The notes under the pieces were generated by a model. It made no database searches, had not been told where the DNA came from, and saw only the letters and a list, made by a program, of their open reading frames with translations. From Patescibacteria group bacterium (GTDB lineage Bacteria > Patescibacteriota > UBA1384 > XYA2-FULL-43-10), in contig JBAYVT010000003.1 in assembly GCA_041674405.1 (NCBI GenBank), forward strand, positions 74,074-138,073: 64,000 nt of DNA, written 5' to 3'. The stretch's first letter is position 1. The number at the start of each line of letters is the position of its first letter. Of this stretch, positions 11,316 through 53,123 are shown in pieces. Both the position numbers and the translations under genes were made by a program.

Positions 11316-12491
11316 TTACCCCGCCTTCATGGCGCGGGCGATCCGGTCCAATCCCTCCTCGATCTCCAGATCGTTGTACGTAAGGCTCATCCGGAAGTAG
11401 CCTTCCCCGCCCGCGCCGAACGCCGAGCCCGGGGTGAGGACGACGTGCGCCGTTTCCACCAGATGCTCACAGAACTCCGCACTGGTCGAGAACCCATCCG
11501 GGATCGGCGCCCAGATGTAAGGAGTCGCCTGAGGCGGTTCGATGCTCCAGCCCAGCGAGTTCAAGGTACCGACGACGAGGTCCCGGCGCTGGCCATAGAC
11601 GAAACAGATGTCCTCGCAGGCCCGCCGATATTCTTTGAGCACCCGGGCACCGGCGAACTGGATGAAACGAGGGGTCCCATTGTCGGTGTTGCCCTTGTAG
11701 CGCTTCAGGTACGACAACACCTCTGGGTTGCCGACGGCCGCGCCGATCCGCCACCCGGTCATGTTAAACCACTTGCTGTGAGAGATGATCTCCACAGCGA
11801 CCTCAGACGCCCCTAGTACCTCCAGGATGCTCGGCTGCCGGATGTTGCCCAGATTCACCAGGCTGTAGGCGGCGTCGTGGACGACAAGGAGCTTGTGCTC
11901 CTTTGCGAATTCGACGGCCTCAGCGAAGAAGTCGAGGCCAGCCACCGCAGTGGTGGGGTTGTTGGGGTAGTTGAGCCAGAGGATCTTCGCTTTCTGGCAA
12001 ATCACCCCCTCGATACTACCCAGGTCGGGGAGCCAGTACGGCGGCTCGAGCTTCATGTGGTAGGTGTTCGCCCCGAACATGTGCTGGGCGATCTCGTAGG
12101 TAGGGTATCCGGGGTCAGGCACAATCCCGAGATCCAGCGGATTCAGGAAGGCCCCAGCGAGCTGGACGATCGCCTCTTTGGACCCACTCGTCCGCAAGAT
12201 CTGGTTGTCCTCGAGCGTGACGCCGAAGTAGCTCTGGTAGAACCGGCACACCTCGGAGTCGAAGTCCGTGACAGGCATGTCATCCCCGTAGCGAAACCGA
12301 TCGGGATCCGTGACATCGTTGGCGGCACGGACCATCTCATCCACAGCACAAAGCGGAGTGGGCATGTCGGGGTCGCCGATTCCGAACGAGACGACATGGA
12401 CACCGCTCGCCTTGAGAGTGTTGATCTTCTCCCGCAGCGAGGCAAACGGATATGGCGGCAATGATGCGAGACGGCCTGAAGGCTCAAGCAT
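11316..12491 (-). CDS. class I/II PLP-dependent aminotransferase (LL-diaminopimelate/Ala aminotransferase-like)
   Basis: N-terminal LPPYPFASL...SFGIGDPDMPTP. PLP-lysine motif SHSKWFNMTGWRIG. About 62% GC island in the AT-rich backbone. Confidence 0.8.
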   Translation of the reverse strand: MLEPSGRLASLPPYPFASLREKINTLKASGVHVVSFGIGDPDMPTPLCAVDEMVRAANDVTDPDRFRYGDDMPVTDFDSEVCRFYQSYFGVTLEDNQILRTSGSKEAIVQLAGAFLNPLDLGIVPDPGYPTYEIAQHMFGANTYHMKLEPPYWLPDLGSIEGVICQKAKILWLNYPNNPTTAVAGLDFFAEAVEFAKEHKLLVVHDAAYSLVNLGNIRQPSILEVLGASEVAVEIISHSKWFNMTGWRIGAAVGNPEVLSYLKRYKGNTDNGTPRFIQFAGARVLKEYRRACEDICFVYGQRRDLVVGTLNSLGWSIEPPQATPYIWAPIPDGFSTSAEFCEHLVETAHVVLTPGSAFGAGGEGYFRMSLTYNDLEIEEGLDRIARAMKAG

Positions 12492-20222: not shown

Positions 20223-20574
20223 AAATCTAATAGCCCCTTGTGGGATGAACTGCGGAGTTTGTCTTCACTATTTACGGGCAGAAAATAAATGCCCTGGTTG
20301 CTTTACCGGTCGTAAAGTAAATAGTCGACCGATCAAGTGCGGGCGCCGCCTATGCAAAAGCCGAACTGGCGTTTTCTGCTTCGAGTGCAATAAGTTCCCT
20401 TGCGACAGCATTGAGCGATTAGATGCGCGCTATCGTGAAAAATACGGCATGTCGGAAATTGAGAATTTACTATATATAAGAGACAATGGAATTGACGAAT
20501 TCTTAAAATCGCAAGGGAAGAAATATATCAAAGGCGACAAAATATATTGCGTGCATGATAAAAAATATTATTAG
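20194..20574 (+). CDS. Cys-rich putative metal-binding protein (DUF3795-like)
   Basis: CGMNCGVCLHY...CPGC...CGRRLC...CFECNKFPCD. Overlaps the upstream gene by 29 nt. Confidence 0.5.
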   Translation: MLIKMEKFTKNLIAPCGMNCGVCLHYLRAENKCPGCFTGRKVNSRPIKCGRRLCKSRTGVFCFECNKFPCDSIERLDARYREKYGMSEIENLLYIRDNGIDEFLKSQGKKYIKGDKIYCVHDKKYY

Positions 20575-20585
20575 AAATCTAAGCC

Positions 20586-20912
20586 ATGAAAAATAGTACA
20601 GCAAAATTTTTCCTTTGGATTCCCAGAATTCTCTCGATCCTTTTCATTATCTTCATCAGCATATTTGCTTTGGATGTTTTTTCTGAATCACAATGGCTAT
20701 TTGCTCTTTTAATGCACCTGATCCCCACTGCTATTTTGATTATATTAACAGCGATTGCCTGGAAAAACGAGTGGATCGGCGGAATGATATTTTTTGCATC
20801 TGGAGTGATTTTTTTGATTGCGACTCGCCTTGAGGCCTACATAATCGCTCTCCCATTAATTGCCATCGGGGTATTGTTTTTACTGAGTAAAAAATATGGT
20901 CTAAAGAAATGA
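20586..20912 (+). CDS. small membrane protein (3 TM)
   Basis: Hydrophobic throughout. RBS-compatible spacing. Confidence 0.4.
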   Translation: MKNSTAKFFLWIPRILSILFIIFISIFALDVFSESQWLFALLMHLIPTAILIILTAIAWKNEWIGGMIFFASGVIFLIATRLEAYIIALPLIAIGVLFLLSKKYGLKK

Positions 20913-20919
20913 GGTGTAA

Positions 20920-21429
20920 ATGGCAAAACAATTAAATGAGAATGGAAAAGAGCTGGGACCGAATGATGAAACCGGCTGCTGCCCGCGATTTGATCCCAAA
21001 CCGTGGGATGGAAAAGTTATTGAATGGGAAGCTAAAAAGTTTATAAAAGACCGCGTCAGAACGTTTATGTTCATGCCGATTAACTTTGGCAAAGTAATGA
21101 CTAGAGCGATGAAAAAGATCGATGATTCAGATGCCAAGTCAGACGTCGGACTCTGCTTATCTGACCATACTTCAAAATGGAATATGGACATTTACATTGC
21201 CGTATCCAAAGAAGTTAAAGACGCGGATAATGTGACGATTTCCGGCAAGTTTTTATCCAAAGTTTACGATGGCCCGTTCAAAGATACGGGCATTTGGTGT
21301 AAGGATTTCGAGAATTATGCAAAAAAAGAGGGTCACGAGATTAAAAAGTGGTACATGTCCTACACTACCTGCCCTGCCTGTGCCAAAAAATACGGCCATA
21401 ATTATGTGATTGTCTTGGGACAAATTTAA
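20920..21429 (+). CDS. hypothetical protein
   Basis: Soluble 169-aa ORF with CCPRF and CPAC motifs. No family recognised. Confidence 0.45.
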   Translation: MAKQLNENGKELGPNDETGCCPRFDPKPWDGKVIEWEAKKFIKDRVRTFMFMPINFGKVMTRAMKKIDDSDAKSDVGLCLSDHTSKWNMDIYIAVSKEVKDADNVTISGKFLSKVYDGPFKDTGIWCKDFENYAKKEGHEIKKWYMSYTTCPACAKKYGHNYVIVLGQI

Positions 21430-21497
21430 TTCAAATCTTATGGGAAAAATAAGACTGAAGAGATCACAATAAATTCTTTGGAGATATCATTAAAAAA

Positions 21498-22112
21498 ATG
21501 AAAAAAATATCAATTTTCGGTTTTCTTGGGACCGCTACATATCTTTTAACAATTATCATCGGTGGACTTTTTAGAGACAACTATCGGCTTTTTATTGACC
21601 CGATCAGCCGTATTTTTGCACGAGGCCTTCCTGGAAGCTGGGCCATTGCCCTGTTTCTTACACTAGGCAATTTTTTGATAATTGCGATCGCGATTGGGAT
21701 ATTTATTCGCTCAAAAAATACTTTTATCAAAACCGGAATGATTTTTTTGATTTTTTCAGGGATCATCGCGAGCATACTGTATAATTTTTTTCCAATGGAT
21801 CCATGGCTCGGCGGCCGGACCCCGGCAGATGTCATACACAATGATATTTTTGGGGTTGTTGTTGCGAGTATTATTTTTGCCTTGTTTTTCTTTGCCCTGG
21901 GAGCCAAATTTGAACTGAGATACAAGAGTTTGTCCAAATATCTTTGGGCGACATTTATTGCGTTCCTCGCAGTTAGTGTTGCCGGCGGAATATCCTGGGA
22001 TAATTTTCCCTATCTCACCGGCTCACTTGAGAGTATTTTTTTGTTAATCTTCATGCAATGGCTCATTGTGATTTCAAGAACGCTTCAACTAGAGCATAAT
22101 AAAAACAATTAG
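21498..22112 (+). CDS. hypothetical membrane protein (DUF998-like topology)
   Basis: Six TM helices. Confidence 0.45.
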   Translation: MKKISIFGFLGTATYLLTIIIGGLFRDNYRLFIDPISRIFARGLPGSWAIALFLTLGNFLIIAIAIGIFIRSKNTFIKTGMIFLIFSGIIASILYNFFPMDPWLGGRTPADVIHNDIFGVVVASIIFALFFFALGAKFELRYKSLSKYLWATFIAFLAVSVAGGISWDNFPYLTGSLESIFLLIFMQWLIVISRTLQLEHNKNN

Positions 22113-33391: not shown

Positions 33392-34501
33392 CTACCCACC
33401 TTCCGGGCTGGTCAGGACCTCCTCAATGACCAGGATTGACCTCTCCAGATCAAGGCCATCCAAGATAGCCTCACATTCGTTCAGAATCAGCCTGGCGCCC
33501 TCCATCGCCGTTGTCTCTCCTGTCCTCTGAGTCTTAAGAGACTCGATCCGGGCACGAAGGGTTTCGATCTCTCCCTCGATTCCCTCGATCTCGTGATCAA
33601 GGCGGTCAACTTCGAGACGATGCCCCTCGATTTCTTCTCGCACCTTGTCGGACGCTTCCTTCAAGTCCTGGTACGGACCAGAGGCAAGAAATCTGTGCAT
33701 CCACTCGAGACACGCCCGGGATTCGCCATCATTCGGCCTGCGCCCAAGCATCTGCGAGATGGTGCCAAAGGCACAAGATGTGAGAGAGTAGTGCCCGTCC
33801 ACGCGACACAGATCCCGCTCCTTCACGCGAGCAACGGCATCACGCACACCCTCATTGGTCACTCGGCTCGGTGACCCAAGTATCTCGCCAAGGGCCCTCC
33901 GTGCGGCGCCCTTGACTTGGCCCTCGGTCAGCACAAGCCTACTCTTTGTAGTCATCCCGCGAATGATCTCGTAGAGCACGAGCCCATCCTGATCGCTGAA
34001 GCGCAAGAGTGCTTCCATTGCTGCGTCGTGTTCGGCTTCCTCGGAGTTGGGTGGTAGGACCTGTTCCTGTTCGGTGTGCTCAATCTCCTCAGTCTCATCA
34101 ACCTCGAGGGCCTTGCCAGTCACGACTGCGTCGAGGCGGTTGAGCAGTTCGATGATCTGTGCCGGGCTCGGGCCATTGCTATCGGTGCTATAGACCCGGT
34201 AGGTGAAAGTGCCATGCATGGCCCGCCGGGGCATCTTGCACCTGATGAGGGCGTAATCCCGATCACCGGGATTGTCTACGCGCACTCCCCAGACACGATC
34301 CTCTTTCGGGCCACTTGTGGTGTCCACATCTGGTATCGAGATGGCCTTAAAGGGTCCGTGAAGGCCGGCTTCATCGAACTTCCCAGCTAGCCATCTCGGA
34401 AAACCAGGTGGCGACCACGACCCTGACGGGTGTCTGGCACTCCCGACGACCTCTACGCTCGTTGTTCCTACCATTGCTTCGAACTGTCTACGTTTTGCCA
34501 A
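33392..34501 (-). CDS. hypothetical protein, GC-rich (about 60% GC), N-terminal globular domain, acidic linker, C-terminal coiled coil
   Basis: Long ORF with protein-like composition. LEVDRLDHEIEGIEGEIETLRARIESL coiled coil. No catalytic motif recognised. Confidence 0.5.
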   Translation of the reverse strand: MAKRRQFEAMVGTTSVEVVGSARHPSGSWSPPGFPRWLAGKFDEAGLHGPFKAISIPDVDTTSGPKEDRVWGVRVDNPGDRDYALIRCKMPRRAMHGTFTYRVYSTDSNGPSPAQIIELLNRLDAVVTGKALEVDETEEIEHTEQEQVLPPNSEEAEHDAAMEALLRFSDQDGLVLYEIIRGMTTKSRLVLTEGQVKGAARRALGEILGSPSRVTNEGVRDAVARVKERDLCRVDGHYSLTSCAFGTISQMLGRRPNDGESRACLEWMHRFLASGPYQDLKEASDKVREEIEGHRLEVDRLDHEIEGIEGEIETLRARIESLKTQRTGETTAMEGARLILNECEAILDGLDLERSILVIEEVLTSPEGG

Positions 34502-34662
34502 AGCGGTTCACCTCTCCCTGAAAGCGTTGGTACGGCAACACACTTATACCACAAAAAGCCAAAATTGACCAGCATAATAGCTGATCTTATTGCTAGCGAT
34601 TAATATGAAAATGCTAAAACCGAAAAAAGGTCAACAAAAATATTTTAATATTGAGGTTGTTC

Positions 34663-34941
34663 TTAAATCCGATTGATCTTTAAAACTGAATCTTGCAAAG
34701 AGGCTTCCACTTCTTGCCCGATTTCCAGATTTAAATTTTGGCGCAGGGTTTTCGTCATACCAATGAATTGATCAATTGAACCATCAATAATAATGGCAGA
34801 TAATCCATTAATAATTGATTTACCCTTACAAACGCCGAGATTCTTTTGATTCTTTGGGCTTAGAGCACACAGAGGAGTGCTTTTGACATCTTTAAATTTT
34901 TTTAACGTCTCTTTCTTAAAACCACGAACGATTAGTTTCAT
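34663..34941 (-). CDS. small protein, possible TOBE/Mop-like domain
   Basis: SPKNQKNLGVCKGKSIINGLSAIIIDGS...GQEVEASL loosely matches the TOBE pattern. Weak. Confidence 0.3.
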   Translation of the reverse strand: MKLIVRGFKKETLKKFKDVKSTPLCALSPKNQKNLGVCKGKSIINGLSAIIIDGSIDQFIGMTKTLRQNLNLEIGQEVEASLQDSVLKINRI

Positions 34942-35141
34942 AATTCTCCTTTGAATTTAAATATTTGTACAAAGAATAATAATATTTCACTACTTTACAT
35001 AATAACAGAAATATTGTTTTACTTAGCCAATGGTTCAATAATAGTCATTTGATCAATAATATTTCATTTACTATATTTCTCTGGTATAAGCATATTATGG
35101 TTGTCTCGACGTTATCCTAAAGGAAGGACTGGTGGATACGA

Positions 35142-36518
35142 TTGAAAAAGGTACCGACTAACCGTAATCCGAGGAGAGGCAAGCTGGAAGGAGAGGGAAA
35201 GACCAAGCGGCTGTACCATGCAGTCGGCAGAGGATTTGGGGAGGTGGTGATCGTAGAGCAGAAGAACACGATCACCAAGCACAACGACCCCTCCCAGACC
35301 GAGGAGTTCGAGTCTAAGGGCCGCTGTTCCACGACATTCGCCTCGCGGGTTTTCGAGCTGCTCACCGCGGCCGGAATCCCCAATGCCTTCATTCGCCAGA
35401 CGGGCGACAACGAGTTTCTCATGCACAGATGCAAGATGCTGGGACTCGAGGTCGTCATCCGCCGTCTCGCGATGGGCAGCTACTTTGACCGCAACCCCCA
35501 CATGAGGCCCAAGGCTGGTGATCCGGCTCCGCGCCTCCACCGGCTGGTCATCGAGATGATGCTGAAGACCACGGAAGGGATCGTTCCGCTCTTGAACGGA
35601 AGCACGCACGACACCGGCATCCGCGATCCCAAGCGGCAAGATCCGCTCATTGTGGATCCATCGGCCGAGATCTGGAAGCTCGCACACCCGCATCTCCCGC
35701 TCTGGGACACCGAGTCCTACATCGGCGAGATCGAGGCCAATCGCGTGATGGATCCTGTCCATCTCGAACAGATCGAACGGCTGGCGCGCCTCATCTTCCT
35801 TCTCCTGGAGTCAGCACTCACCAATGTGGGTAGCCGACTGGCGGACCTCAAACTCGAGTTCGGCTTCCTGCCAGACGGAACACTGGTGGTCGCCGACGTG
35901 ATCGACCCGGATTCGCTCCGGCAAGCCGTGTGGAACAACGATCTGGACGCGTGGATAGACTTGAGCAAGCAGAGCTTCCGGGACGGCATAGGCCTTGAGG
36001 AAGTCGAGCGCAAGTACCTGAACGCGGCCATGCTCGCGGAGAGGATCCGTGTTCCTCGCCAAGCGCTCATCACGTGGATAGGATCGCCCAAGGACACCCA
36101 CCCGCCGGTGGACAGTAAGCTACTGCTTCACACCGGCATCACCCATGAGAAGGTCATGATCTCGGGACACAAGCAGCCCGAGCACGTTCTTCCCGAACTC
36201 GAGCACCTCCTCGCCCAGTACCCCGATGGCGGCGTGATTATCGCCAAGGTGGGGATGTCCAACGGCTTGGGCCCGATCCTCGCCGCTCGCACCTCTCTGC
36301 CCGTGATCTCGGTCGTCGCCAACGCGGCCCCGGACGATCACGGGGTAGTACACCTGGAAGATGCGTGGAGTTCGCTTCGCATGCCCTCAGACGTGCCGAA
36401 CCTCACGGTGCTAAGCGAGAAGAACGCCATCACCGCGGCGCTGAACATCCTTGCCCGGAAGGATCCGGTGCTGTACATGTTCCGGCAGTACGAGATCGAG
36501 AAGCTTGCGGCGGTGTAA
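35142..36518 (+). CDS. bifunctional SAICAR synthetase (PurC) / class II AIR carboxylase (PurE) fusion, PAICS-like
   Basis: N-terminal domain: EGKTKRLY...GIPNAFIRQTGDNEFLMHRCKMLGLEVVIRRLAMGSYF (PurC). C-terminal domain: ITWIGSPKD...ISGHKQPE...VIIAKVGMSNGLGPILAARTSLPVISV (PurE, HK as in class II). TTG start in track, uncertain. About 62% GC. Confidence 0.75.
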   Translation: MKKVPTNRNPRRGKLEGEGKTKRLYHAVGRGFGEVVIVEQKNTITKHNDPSQTEEFESKGRCSTTFASRVFELLTAAGIPNAFIRQTGDNEFLMHRCKMLGLEVVIRRLAMGSYFDRNPHMRPKAGDPAPRLHRLVIEMMLKTTEGIVPLLNGSTHDTGIRDPKRQDPLIVDPSAEIWKLAHPHLPLWDTESYIGEIEANRVMDPVHLEQIERLARLIFLLLESALTNVGSRLADLKLEFGFLPDGTLVVADVIDPDSLRQAVWNNDLDAWIDLSKQSFRDGIGLEEVERKYLNAAMLAERIRVPRQALITWIGSPKDTHPPVDSKLLLHTGITHEKVMISGHKQPEHVLPELEHLLAQYPDGGVIIAKVGMSNGLGPILAARTSLPVISVVANAAPDDHGVVHLEDAWSSLRMPSDVPNLTVLSEKNAITAALNILARKDPVLYMFRQYEIEKLAAV

Positions 36519-36574
36519 CCGCCAGCGAGCCCGTACAAAGTTCTTCCATCCCGGAAGACAATAGCAGCAAACGC

Positions 36575-36603
36575 TTCAGGCGGCCCGACTCGGGCCGCCT
36601 GAA
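36575..36603 (+). terminator. strong GC hairpin after purCE (ttcaggcggcccg act cgggccgcctgaa)
   Basis: Perfect 13-bp stem. Weak U-tract. Confidence 0.45.
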
Positions 36604-36897
36604 ATGCTACAGAATCAAAATTCTCATTAATTATCCGATGATATACCGACATAAAATACATTAAGAGAAGGAGGCCCGCGCAGTACAGTCGGGCCTCGTT
36701 GCTCGGCGGATTACCGCCATCGGTCACCTTCTTCTCTCCTTGTGATTCTTTAGCGCCCAACGAATGAGAAACTATTAAAAATTAGACGAAATATTTCCAG
36801 CAGAATCAACAATACTAAGTTTATTGTTTGGCATATGCAAAAGTATTTCAGCATGACTGCAAAAATTGAAATAGAGAATATATTTGAAAACGATAAT

Positions 36898-37710
36898 TTA
36901 CTTGCGATATTTTTTCAGCAATCTATCGCTTACCGGAACAATTATCATCAGCCCGGCTAATAGTCCCAGGACCAGCCACTTATTTTCGGAGACAGGATTT
37001 TGCGGCCCGGTTTCCGGCAAAGCTGTTATCGTAGTAGTTGTAGCGGGTGTAGCAGGATTGTTAACAACAATTCTAACTGTTGACGAAAGATAAGTGTCCT
37101 CGCCTTCAGCCTTTGCCTTGTCGAGATCAAATACCCCCGCAATCCTTTCTGCATCTGGACCAACAACATAAAATGTGCCAGTTATTACTGTCTGATCGGG
37201 AACGTCAGATTTTATTCTAGCCGAGATTGACCCAATCTCGGCGTCCATCGTGGTGTCCAGACCATTACTCAAAATAATTGCTTCGGGCGAAGAATATTCG
37301 AAAGCATTAGTGTCAAGGTCCAAATCTCCCATTCCAGAGCCGAAAATATCAAGATTCTCAAGATATTCCGCGTTTGTGAAAGAAACGCCAAAAATCGGGT
37401 TTATGCTAGTGTTACCCTCGACCCGAGTGAGTCCGAGAAAGGTCAAATTATCACCAGGACTTGCTGTCAACGTTTCGCCAAGGCCACCGGCCATTTCCGG
37501 ATTGGCCGAATAGTCGGAGTAGTTATACAAATCATCATTTGTCGCCTCAAGAAAACAATTCTCTATCTTGCACACCAATGCGGCCATATAGAGAGAATTC
37601 CCCTCTCCTAAGTCGTAGTATGTTTCCGGAGTAGCGCCAGCAATCGTGGGAAATAATGAACTTATAGCCATAGCGATCATCGTAGTCCAGACTAGACAAA
37701 ATTTTTTCAT
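36898..37710 (-). CDS. LPXTG-anchored cell-surface protein (sortase substrate)
   Basis: N-terminal signal peptide. C-terminal LPETG followed by a hydrophobic helix and KKYRK. Confidence 0.65.
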   Translation of the reverse strand: MKKFCLVWTTMIAMAISSLFPTIAGATPETYYDLGEGNSLYMAALVCKIENCFLEATNDDLYNYSDYSANPEMAGGLGETLTASPGDNLTFLGLTRVEGNTSINPIFGVSFTNAEYLENLDIFGSGMGDLDLDTNAFEYSSPEAIILSNGLDTTMDAEIGSISARIKSDVPDQTVITGTFYVVGPDAERIAGVFDLDKAKAEGEDTYLSSTVRIVVNNPATPATTTTITALPETGPQNPVSENKWLVLGLLAGLMIIVPVSDRLLKKYRK

Positions 37711-52508: not shown

Positions 52509-53123
52509 ATGAACAAGCTGTTGTTGGGCGTCTTGATCTCAGGAGGGGGCACCAACCTCCAAAAGATCATTGATCGTATCGGGGATGGCACCCTTTGTGC
52601 TGAGGTCGCTGTAGTGATCTCGAACAAAACCGATGCTTACGGCCTCGAACGTGCCAGAAATGCTGGCATTCGGGCTGTATTCCTTGACCCGAAAAGCTTC
52701 TCCAGCAAGCACGAGTTCGACCAGGCAATAGCCGAGGAACTTCAGCACTCAGGCGTTCAGCTCGTGGTTATGGCCGGATACATGAGGCTGCTCGGCAAGG
52801 AAGTCCTCGACGCCTTCCCGGGCAAGGTAATCAATCTTCATCCCGCTCTGCTGCCCTCATTCAAGGGGGAGCACGGGATTGCGGATGCCTTCGCCTATGG
52901 GGTTAAGGTCACCGGGGTAACCGTGCATTTCGCCGATGGCGAGTATGACACTGGCCCCATTATCGCGCAAACGCCAATCGCTGTGCTTGAGGACGACACA
53001 GTGGAGTCGCTCGAGCAGCGCATTCATGATGCTGAGTACAAGATCCTACCTCGAGTCATCCAGTTATTCTCGGAGGGCCGCGTCAAGATCGATGGTCGCC
53101 GCATTCACATCGACCAGAGGTAA
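52509..53123 (+). CDS. purN: phosphoribosylglycinamide formyltransferase PurN
   Basis: LISGGGTNLQ, VVMAGYMRLL and NLHPALLPSFKG motifs. True start at 52509 (track start 52407 is upstream read-through). About 56% GC. Confidence 0.85.
   Translation: MNKLLLGVLISGGGTNLQKIIDRIGDGTLCAEVAVVISNKTDAYGLERARNAGIRAVFLDPKSFSSKHEFDQAIAEELQHSGVQLVVMAGYMRLLGKEVLDAFPGKVINLHPALLPSFKGEHGIADAFAYGVKVTGVTVHFADGEYDTGPIIAQTPIAVLEDDTVESLEQRIHDAEYKILPRVIQLFSEGRVKIDGRRIHIDQR

Follow-up and report, generated by a model that had tools for sequence, protein, structure and literature searches.

Reviews usually show the fusion of SAICAR synthetase (PurC) with a class II AIR carboxylase (PurE) as the way in which animals carry out steps 6 and 7 of purine synthesis. 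Class II PurE is usually described there as a rarity among bacteria, in which a class I PurE acting with PurK is the usual route. A gene with this architecture, purCE, lies within a GC-rich island in the 64,000-nt stretch of DNA analysed here (the window), from a tiny-genome bacterium of the Patescibacteria. This raises the question of what enzyme it encodes and from where it came. We consider it probable that purCE specifies a working PAICS-type enzyme and that it is an old xenolog of the type found in CPR, drifting toward the composition of its host.

The gene consists of a single uninterrupted frame, as a sequence-only reading of the locus had proposed, and it begins with a TTG codon (Table 1); its translation contains the two peptides cited in that reading. 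Both halves of the 458-residue product score far above the Pfam cut-offs: SAICAR_synt (PF01259) matches residues 18 to 285 (E 3e-33, 116 bits versus a cut-off of 20) and AIRC (PF00731) matches residues 326 to 444 (E 3.7e-16, 59 bits versus a cut-off of 30). The PurE domain is taken from residue 307, the start of its predicted first strand and of its G-S-x-x-D loop.

Table 1. Features of the purCE locus and the purN gene, in window coordinates
Feature	Position	Strand	Basis
Sigma-70-like promoter match (predicted): TTGATC, 17-nt spacer, TATATT	35049..35077	+	consensus scan only
Conserved upstream block with extended -10-like TGGTATAAG (35082-35090)	35080..35117	+	sister comparison
Second Shine-Dalgarno-like sequence, AAGGAAGGA	35120-35128	+	direct reading of sequence
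Shine-Dalgarno-like GGTGGA, 5 nt ahead of TTG	35131..35136	+	direct reading of sequence
purCE, bifunctional SAICAR synthetase / class II AIR carboxylase (PAICS-type), 458 aa	35142..36518	+	Pfam, alignment, fold
SAICAR synthetase (PurC) domain, aa 18-285	35193..35996	+	PF01259
ATP P-loop GKTK, aa 19-22	35196-35207	+	within PurC domain
AIR carboxylase (class II PurE) domain, aa 307-458	36060..36515	+	PF00731 and predicted structure
S-G-H-K, catalytic His and class II Lys, aa 341-344	36162..36173	+	alignment to human PAICS
G-M-S-N-G-L-G-P, class II 70s/330s loop, aa 371-378	36252..36275	+	alignment to human PAICS
GC-rich hairpin, perfect 13-bp stem, 3-nt loop, 57 nt past stop	36575..36603	+	folding
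Second GC-rich stem-loop in the 3' tail of the island	36671..36697	+	folding
purN (GAR transformylase), 204 aa	52509..53123	+	TIGR00639

The fusion is not exceptional for such an organism. A PurC-PurE fusion is encoded in at least 585 species genomes of GTDB, almost all of them from Patescibacteria, and JGI annotation of the family is already of PAICS type (phosphoribosylaminoimidazole carboxylase / SAICAR synthase). No description of a prokaryotic fusion was found in the literature on CPR and on PurC/PurE fusions. A PurB-like lyase is encoded in 44 out of 81 related loci; in 32 it adjoins the fusion gene, always on the same strand. Other purine genes in these 81 loci encode PurL (20), PurM (18) and PurH (8), and related loci with an unfused PurC have a separate class I PurE. 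The fusion is the standard form of steps 6 and 7 in purine-making Patescibacteria, usually directly downstream of purB. An architecture treated as animal is, therefore, normal among the minority of Patescibacteria that make purines. This alters no general principle; the gain lies in better annotation and in a locus well suited to the study of amelioration and of how a pathway is re-acquired. The window protein shares architecture, motifs and length with members of this family (such as P0046, P0100 and the Berkelbacteria locus L058 in CP011213), at 43-50% identity. Unlike them, the window gene belongs to a long branch on which only three to four relatives are known, lies 16-18 GC points above its genome, encodes a GARP-enriched protein and has no purB or other pur gene beside it.

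The relationships of the window gene were assessed using a neighbour-joining tree of 417 columns, rooted on two partial animal sequences. It nests within the main Patescibacteria clade in 100/100 bootstraps, on a long stem branch. Outside its sub-clade of three to four members, neither a search of 5.8 billion proteins nor two metagenome scans gave a match above 50% identity. The scan with the single protein gave no matches, and the one with the sub-clade alignment returned two distant relatives only, with no further GC-rich sub-clade member and no donor. In IMG/VR contigs, we retrieved two full-length fusions at 41% identity, the remaining viral matches being PurC-only; no sign of a phage vector for the window purCE was seen in viral contigs or annotated phages. 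A homologue labelled 'Heimdallarchaeaceae' (P0017) was considered as a pointer to an Asgard origin and rejected, its contig also encoding bacterial LigA, N_methyl pilins and DUF5671 and being most likely a mis-binned CPR contig.

The composition of purCE is strongly atypical, as first read, with figures that needed correcting: the gene has 60.6% GC rather than 62%, in a window of 44.1% rather than about 40%. Its GC3 is 79.1%, whereas the window genes average 44.4% GC and 44.9% GC3. The codon-usage and tetranucleotide comparisons suggested by the sequence-only reading single the gene out: among 209 sliding windows, it deviates more than any other in tetranucleotide profile (robust z 8.4), and in codon usage it ranks second (robust z -4.3). 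Antisense shadow ORFs are present, as had been noted. The GC boundaries are sharp, with a step within about 100 bp at 35100 on the 5' side and another near 36600-36740 on the 3' side. No integrase, transposase or tRNA adjoins purCE in the window. A GC-rich ORF of 369 aa at 33392-34501 was rejected as part of the same island, as a spacer of 33% GC and a gene lie between the two and the ORF is absent at L006, one of the sister loci described below.

The same GC-rich purCE is present in two sister lineages (loci L006 and L007), within flanks of 41-43% GC. The sub-clade copies have a GC3 of 78-84%, and the window gene is separated from its sisters by a dS of 1.0-1.8, with a dN/dS of 0.12-0.16; purifying selection was measured over the full length of the window and L006 copies, PurE half included. 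Amino-acid identity is 77% for purCE and, at a similar level of divergence, 66% for the CDC48_N-like gene that flanks it. The TTG start and an N-terminal KVP..NP.RG extension are kept in both L006 and L007. In L007, the PurE half has been lost entirely and the gene abuts a transposase.

The flanking elements are shared as well. Over 38 nt, the upstream block matches its L006 counterpart at 82% identity, and TCTG[G/A]TATAAG is invariant in the three sub-clade copies (3/3). The sigma-70-like match falls in the AT-rich spacer ahead of purCE; the consensus scan gave eight promoter-like sites in this region versus 2.4 expected. Downstream, the 222-nt 3' region folds at z = -5.3 versus shuffles, and the hairpin noticed in the sequence-only reading was recovered with a perfect stem. 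L006 has a hairpin at the equivalent position, whose stem is kept through two double-sided changes in the two sequences compared. The terminator scan did not call the window hairpin because it lacks a T-tract; it is probably a terminator or a 3' mRNA stabiliser. An Rfam scan of 34400-37000 revealed no riboswitch or known RNA in the 5' block or at the 3' hairpins.

These observations fit a CPR-type gene that was imported laterally once, long ago, from a GC-rich donor not yet sampled, and whose composition is now ameliorating. Horizontal acquisition best explains the foreign composition, in agreement with the sequence-only reading; a recent date does not, since the sister lineages share the gene, the promoter block and the hairpin at a dS of 1.0-1.8. 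The main competing explanation, which we regard as unlikely, is that purCE is native and vertically inherited, and that its high GC has been made or kept in place by selection on codon usage or mRNA structure, or by biased gene conversion. The nesting of the gene inside the Patescibacteria clade and the failure to find a GC-rich donor in very large databases would both be expected of a native gene. A GC3 excess is, moreover, systematic across the family: purCE exceeds its neighbours in GC3 with a median z of +1.5 (z >2 in 23 out of 55 loci), and purB and purH are also GC3-richer than neighbouring ORFs in many CPR genomes, though less so than purCE. The persistence of a GC3 of 78-84% after a dS of 1.0-1.8 points in the same direction.

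However, the synonymous changes themselves run the other way. When polarised, they give a ratio of S>W to W>S changes of 19:5 for the window lineage and of 28:5 for L006, with an implied equilibrium GC3 of 0.44-0.53, which is the host level; the polarisation was by parsimony on three taxa at dS >=1 and is biased toward inferring common-to-rare changes. This flux, mostly from GC to AT, is the opposite of maintenance, and active upkeep of GC3 was accordingly downgraded. The excess is also not confined to synonymous sites, since the amino-acid composition is likewise shifted to GC-rich codons (GARP residues make up 27.5% of the window protein versus 23.7 +/- 1.6% in the family), nor to the coding region, since the GC-rich tract runs about 220 nt beyond the stop into non-coding DNA and ends near 36740. 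Furthermore, unrelated genes of the same window are anomalous in the same way and have clearly foreign affinities, such as a GC-rich aminotransferase that matches Planctomycetota and Fervidibacteria (50-54%), whereas housekeeping genes such as recA, rpoD and pnp have an ordinary GC content.

The class II signature SGHKQPE, recognised in the sequence-only reading, spans residues 341-347, and its columns match exactly those of SAHKGPD in human PAICS and SAHKATE in Bombyx PAICS, so that S341-G-H343-K344 pairs with human Ser301-Ala302-His303-Lys304. The role of the catalytic His303 in human PAICS (PMC9376930) and the Arg/Lys difference between class I and class II after the catalytic His (PMC10484210) have been described, and the class II motif definitions used here derive from PDB alignments and from these two papers together with PMC3261824. 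The second motif, G371-M-S-N-G-L-G-P378, pairs with the human Gly330-Leu335 region (human loop 330-337). Class I PurE (N5-CAIR mutase; Escherichia coli 1QCZ, A. aceti 1U11) shares the fold, the catalytic His and the GSxSD loop, but has SAHR (SAHRTP) at the S-G-H-K position and GGAAHLPG in place of GMSNGLGP, and it needs PurK and ATP. The class I motifs SAHR and AAHLPG do not occur in the window protein. In the SAICAR synthetase site, 16 out of 20 mappable human PAICS residues are identical (among them G16-K19, T40, N43, E97, K191, E193, D207, D212, S213, R215, K228, R232), the differences from human to window protein being A41K, G42H, M190L and W214L; human F129, K131, D133 and D137 lie outside this comparison, in a segment left unaligned by HMMER. 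The Leu at the position of human Trp214 is a feature of the window sub-clade.

Some further replacements could indicate that the PurE half is altered or inactive, leaving a protein that acts as PurC only or has another carboxylase specificity. Human Arg331, which contacts the AIR phosphate, corresponds to Met372 in the window protein, and human Ser276 and Thr275 are replaced by Lys and Pro, respectively. The NCBIfam equivalog scores are far under their cut-offs (purC TIGR00081, 75.6 versus 189.9; purE TIGR01162, 55.2 versus 149.6); because both models miss the fusion, NCBI annotation names one half of the protein only. The sister copy without a PurE half points the same way. Nevertheless, we find this explanation quite improbable. 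The Ser, His and Lys of S-x-H-K are invariant in 70/70 family members, as are the Asp of GSxxD and, within the GMSNGLGP loop, residues G, S, N, G and P. At position 372, Met occurs in 34 and Arg in 29 of these 70 proteins, and each of the 70 has a Lys or Arg at one or more of positions 313, 316, 317 and 372 (K317 in the window protein). Arg331 is, therefore, not family-defining outside animals, and the alignment suggests that the charge contacting the AIR phosphate has been relocated rather than lost. Purifying selection over the full-length pair of window and L006 copies, with the PurE half included, also argues against inactivation.

The predicted structure supports the assignment of the whole chain. 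The AF2 model is confident (pLDDT 90.7, pTM 0.91), also across the domain junction and linker. The only full-length matches in the PDB are animal PAICS, by sequence (Bombyx and human, E 2.9e-36 and 4.3e-35) as well as by fold (6YB8, E 5e-30, and 4JA0, E 4e-29, about 460 columns each). The two domains are oriented differently in the model and in PAICS, which holds the full-length TM down to 0.54-0.65 (rmsd 7-8 A). Stand-alone PurC structures superpose on the PurC domain with a target-normalised TM of 0.80-0.92, and the best-fitting stand-alone PurE fold is the class II PurE of Treponema denticola (3RG8/3RGG; TM 0.71). This enzyme, too, is a bacterial carboxylase with class II chemistry that does not need PurK, but it is not fused to PurC and its sequence resembles the PurE half only weakly (E 7.5e-4), less than several class I enzymes do.

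Animal PAICS (human 2H31/6YB8, Bombyx mori 4JA0) is among the closest known systems, with an N-terminal PurC and a C-terminal class II PurE on one chain, the GKTK P-loop, the Lys, Arg and Asp that bind Asp and CAIR, SxHK and the GxSNGLGP loop. The domain order, the shared motifs and the fact that animal PAICS is the best PDB match for the whole protein and for each half might suggest that a true PAICS was acquired from a eukaryote. This origin is effectively refuted and seems to us very improbable. The window protein, from a bacterial host, is only about 26% identical to animal PAICS, versus 45-50% to hundreds of Patescibacteria proteins, and a split with 100% bootstrap sets the clade of the window gene apart from animal PAICS and a basal bacterial clade. 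In addition, its PurC domain has an extra stretch of roughly 40 residues relative to PAICS, which is present family-wide and is left unaligned by HMMER (window residues 124-198 versus human 118-152). Its sub-clade adds insertions of its own, LRQAV after residue 258 and six residues near residue 400. The likeness to eukaryotic PAICS pointed out in the sequence-only reading, therefore, holds for domain order and class II motifs, and not for a eukaryotic or non-CPR type of gene.

That the fusion or its island is an artefact (an assembly chimera, GC-rich contamination or two genes joined by a frameshift) can practically be dismissed: although composition changes abruptly at both ends of purCE, the identical gene and junctions, with no frameshift or stop between the halves, are found again in a 152-kb ENA contig and in the assemblies from two further sequencing runs, the GC-rich gene also stands between AT-rich flanks, next to the conserved promoter block, in the two sister lineages, the same two-domain ORF recurs across the genomes counted above, and the structure model is confident over the domain junction.

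With the gene taken as an old import of CPR type, the course of events can be outlined. A CPR-type purCE would have resided for long in a GC-rich genome before entering the common ancestor of the window organism and at least two sister lineages, a direction and an age that remain conjectural. There, it may have come under an AT-rich promoter of host type, if the conserved block has that role, and it would thereafter have been inherited vertically under purifying selection, with its synonymous sites decaying toward the composition of the host. As for the product, the class II PurE domain would convert AIR and CO2 to CAIR directly, with neither ATP nor PurK, and the PurC domain would next combine CAIR with aspartate and ATP to form SAICAR; these two reactions are steps 6 and 7 of the ten-step de novo synthesis of IMP. 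Given the changes Arg331 to Met and Trp214 to Leu, we can only infer this activity. The roughly 84 kb of the genome that were examined showed no PurK-like gene.

A broader and more tentative possibility is that purB, purCE and purH, the late purine module, form a mobile cassette that has moved into and within Patescibacteria, repeatedly restoring lost IMP synthesis, and, in a related proposal, that the prokaryotic fusion and animal PAICS are orthologues descended from one fusion event. If true, the window gene would have been caught mid-amelioration, and the 'animal' PurC-PurE architecture would be of bacterial origin or have a bacterial reservoir.

The surrounding DNA also bears on the suggestion that de novo purine synthesis may otherwise be missing from the lineage. 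Besides purCE and purN, no pur genes were found in the roughly 84 kb of the genome inspected. Nonetheless, the bona fide purN (TIGR00639, 232 bits versus a cut-off of 150), lying 16 kb from purCE and kept in a sister lineage, undermines that suggestion. This gene has 55% GC and a GC3 of 67%, its product matches proteins from Coriobacteriia and Actinobacteria at 60-64%, and both its GC excess and its synteny with UDG are conserved in the sister lineage. The locus is, thus, a concrete and datable example of how nucleotide-synthesis genes become scattered across the phylum, with the foreign purCE, purN and aminotransferase genes standing as single-gene GC-rich islands among AT-rich housekeeping genes.

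The PurC–PurE fusion gene purCE belongs to a large, already annotated family of PAICS-type enzymes in Patescibacteria (CPR), within which it is divergent and was probably acquired laterally. The sequence-only reading had described it as a single ORF, which holds: the gene starts at a TTG, and its 458-aa translation contains both peptides quoted in that reading. Pfam searches detected a SAICAR_synt domain at aa 18-285 (E 3e-33) and an AIRC domain at aa 326-444 (E 3.7e-16). The gene has 60.6% GC and a third-codon-position GC (GC3) of 79.1%, compared with 44.1% GC for the window and means of 44.4% GC and 44.9% GC3 for its 49 long ORFs. Its tetranucleotide composition was the most deviant among 209 sliding windows (robust z 8.4), and its synonymous codon usage was the second most deviant (robust z -4.3). 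The encoded protein contains 27.5% Gly+Ala+Arg+Pro, versus 23.7 +/- 1.6% across the family. The hairpin reported downstream pairs perfectly over 13 bp around a 3-nt loop, and the 222-nt region 3' of purCE folds with z = -5.3; the hairpin carries no T-tract, and a terminator scan made no call there. Since the same gene and junctions were recovered, identical, in a 152-kb ENA contig and in assemblies from two other sequencing runs, the fusion and its GC-rich island are not assembly artefacts.

Coordinates of purCE, other GC-rich genes and related features
Feature	Sequence	Coordinates	Strand	Assignment
purCE	window	35142-36518	+	PurC–PurE fusion
3' hairpin	window	36575-36603
purN	window	52509-53123	+	GAR transformylase; TIGR00639, 232 bits (cut-off 150)
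Aminotransferase, 391 aa	window	11316-12491	-	class I/II; LL-diaminopimelate-aminotransferase-like, under equivalog cut-offs
369-aa ORF	window	33392-34501	-
Interval compared with sister locus L006	window	34663-36518
Sister purN	L092	1729-2346
Region of truncated sister purCE	L007	1348-3387
Anaerobic ribonucleotide reductase	L090 (contig region left of the window)	20393-22022		ATP-cone + NRDD

The enzyme itself had also been identified correctly. Among solved structures, only Bombyx PAICS (4JA0, E 2.9e-36) and human PAICS (2H31, E 4.3e-35) matched over the full length, with both halves aligned. When the PurE half was searched alone, PAICS came first (E about 2e-10), with class I mutases behind (about 1e-5). 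An AlphaFold model built from a 40-sequence family alignment (pLDDT 90.7, pTM 0.91) retrieved the same two proteins in Foldseek (human E 5e-30, Bombyx E 4e-29, each over ~460 columns), with stand-alone PurC structures next (target-normalised TM up to 0.92) and PurE structures after them, the best fit being the class II enzyme of Treponema denticola (TM 0.71).

Active-site residues listed for human PAICS (PMC9376930) were transferred through a HMMER alignment. Identical residues (human numbering) comprise Gly273, Ser274, Asp277, Ser301, His303, Lys304, Gly330, Ser332, Asn333, Gly334 and Leu335 in the carboxylase site, and Gly16-Lys19, Thr40, Asn43, Glu97, Val99, Lys191, Glu193, Asp207, Asp212, Ser213, Arg215, Lys228 and Arg232 in the synthetase site. 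The His-Lys pair therefore lies at the catalytic position, where class I PurE structures instead align SAHRTP, with GGAAHLPGM at the second motif; this difference between Arg in class I enzymes and Lys in human PAICS has been pointed out previously (PMC10484210). In the window protein, human Arg331 is replaced by Met, Ser276 by Lys, Thr275 by Pro, Trp214 by Leu, Ala41 by Lys and Gly42 by His. Across 70 family members, S341, H343, K344 and G371-x-S-N-G-L-G-P are essentially invariant, while position 372 is Met in 34 and Arg in 29. All 70 carry Lys or Arg at one or more of positions 313, 316, 317 and 372 (K317 in the window protein), a pattern suggesting that the phosphate-binding charge may have been relocated.

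This bifunctional bacterial family is without a curated model. The name that NCBI gives the protein covers one half only, because its scores fall far under the NCBIfam equivalog cut-offs (purC 75.6 against 189.9, purE 55.2 against 149.6); PGAP gives each family member one of two names, 'SAICAR synthase' or 'AIR carboxylase family protein'. JGI already names such proteins phosphoribosylaminoimidazole carboxylase / SAICAR synthase. The exact window protein is an entry of an NCBI 'Patescibacteria group bacterium' MAG, and more than 300 proteins with both Pfam domains share 43-50% identity with it. When one genome per GTDB species was scanned, at least 585 relatives were confirmed, a few with the PurC half only. 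Nearly all belong to Patescibacteria (Moranbacteria, Parcubacteria/Paceibacterota, Falkowbacteria, Daviesbacteria, Magasanikbacteria, Berkelbacteria, Peribacteria and Staskawiczbacteria), and a few occur outside CPR in GC-rich genomes, among them Pseudolabrys and a Polyangiaceae MAG. Neighbours were clustered in 81 loci and representatives checked with Pfam: a PurB-like lyase was present in 44 loci and adjacent in 32, on the same strand every time, with PurL (20), PurM (18), PurH (8), SHMT (5) and FolD (5) also found. Loci with a PurC-only match have a separate class I PurE. Thus, those Patescibacteria that make purines, a minority of the phylum, ordinarily encode steps 6 and 7 as this fusion. 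De novo nucleotide synthesis is reported to be absent from 93% of Patescibacteria genomes, with the genes that are present phylogenetically scattered (preprint 10.64898/2026.06.21.733656, 2026).

The homologue P0017 is labelled Heimdallarchaeaceae; its 10-kb contig (L093) carries an NAD-dependent LigA, three N_methyl pilin-like genes and DUF5671, and looks bacterial (CPR-like), so that the Asgard label is probably a binning error. Many purCE records labelled 'MAG TPA_asm: uncultured Gammaproteobacteria / Bdellovibrionales / Hyphomicrobiales' (L011, L016, L031, L035, L036 and others) group tightly with copies from Patescibacteria, and the taxonomy they are labelled with looks unreliable; a few are among the computed GC extremes, with flanks of 33-35% GC. 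Two IMG/VR 'viral' contigs (L096 and L097, one of 241 kb) carry an identical full-length purCE, 41% identical to the window protein; the contigs may derive from CPR genomes and have been classed as viral, or the gene may be a real auxiliary one.

Only three close relatives of the window protein were found (P0002, 77-78% identity; P0004 and P0005, 73-75%). On two of their contigs (L006 and L007) the gene has 61-63% GC and GC3 of 78-84% within flanks of 41-43% GC; an ordinary family member has 40% GC, like its host. The window and L006 have in common def, a CDC48_N-like small gene (66% aa identity) and a 38-nt block upstream of purCE; an extended -10-like TCTG[G/A]TATAAG and the TTG start are kept in all three sub-clade copies. 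At the equivalent position L006 also carries a 3' hairpin, and the stem survives two double-sided changes between the two sequences compared. In the same sister metagenome (JGI 3300050015), purN again lies beside UDG and is GC-rich (57% against 45%). Taken together, the shared flanking genes, upstream block, -10-like motif, start codon, hairpin and purN synteny tie the copies to one ancestral insertion. With dS of 0.98-1.8, dN of 0.14-0.22 and dN/dS of 0.12-0.16 between copies, the gene is therefore functional and has been vertically inherited over a long time. The 92-aa CDC48_N-like gene lies upstream of purCE in the window and downstream in L006, with def on the same side, indicating local rearrangement around the island after the lineages split. 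In L007, purCE ends after aa 327, barely inside the PurE domain, and gives way to AT-rich sequence and a Transposase_mut/IS66-like gene; an IS insertion may have removed the PurE half, or this short contig may be chimeric.

By three-taxon parsimony polarisation of synonymous third positions, GC-to-AT changes outnumber AT-to-GC changes by 19:5 on the window lineage, 28:5 on that of L006 and 18:13 on that of L007. Under the window and L006 counts, GC3 would settle at an equilibrium of 0.44-0.53, matching the host; the GC of purCE is decaying rather than being maintained high, on a parsimony basis that is biased at such divergence. Neighbour-joining nested the window gene, with its long stem branch, within the main Patescibacteria clade (100/100 bootstraps), split with 100% support from animal PAICS and a basal clade holding the GC-rich non-CPR copies. 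No donor was found in protein databases and two metagenome scans, nor a phage vector among viral contigs and annotated phages. Lateral acquisition, as first proposed, is the best explanation, with the evolutionary reading otherwise revised: the gene is of CPR type and was probably acquired long ago, from an unsampled GC-rich source, by a recipient that has purN as well.

A GC excess of late purine genes across the family is a caveat on this composition-based argument. In 80 GTDB loci (L010-L089), purCE exceeds its own flanks by a mean of 5.5 GC points (sd 4.8, maximum +17.8), and its GC3 relative to non-pur ORFs of the same locus has a median z of +1.5, with 23 of 55 loci exceeding 2. The same tendency is seen for PurB (median z +0.7) and PurH (+2.3, n = 6), and not for PurL, PurM, SHMT (glyA) or FolD. 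The late purine module may have been repeatedly transferred into AT-rich CPR genomes, or there may be gene-specific codon bias.

Other GC-rich single genes in the window (the aminotransferase and purN) are foreign as well. The aminotransferase, as GC-rich as purCE (61% GC, GC3 81%), is a second single-gene foreign island. Its best matches reach 50-54% identity, the few named sources being Planctomycetota/Phycisphaerae, Fervidibacteria and Abditibacteriaceae; itself excepted, its top matches include no Patescibacteria relatives. The nearest named relatives of purN (55% GC, GC3 67%) are Coriobacteriia and Actinobacteria (60-64% identity). The 369-aa ORF (58% GC, GC3 65%) is separated from purCE by a spacer and gene of 33% GC and is missing from L006. 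It has no Pfam domain, and aa 277-328 give a sub-threshold NCBIfam match (20 bits, cut-off 40) to alpha-xenorhabdolysin subunit B.

The window as a whole is ordinary CPR chromosome, with rpoD, dnaG, recA, recX, ftsK, pnp, RNase J, PPDK, def and a signal peptidase. No pur gene adjoins purCE there, and none beyond purCE and purN occurs within the 84 kb of contig read. The bona fide purN in this stretch undermines the suggestion that the lineage may otherwise be without de novo purine synthesis. The anaerobic ribonucleotide reductase, encoded ~8 kb past the window's left edge, likewise speaks for investment in nucleotide metabolism by this organism.
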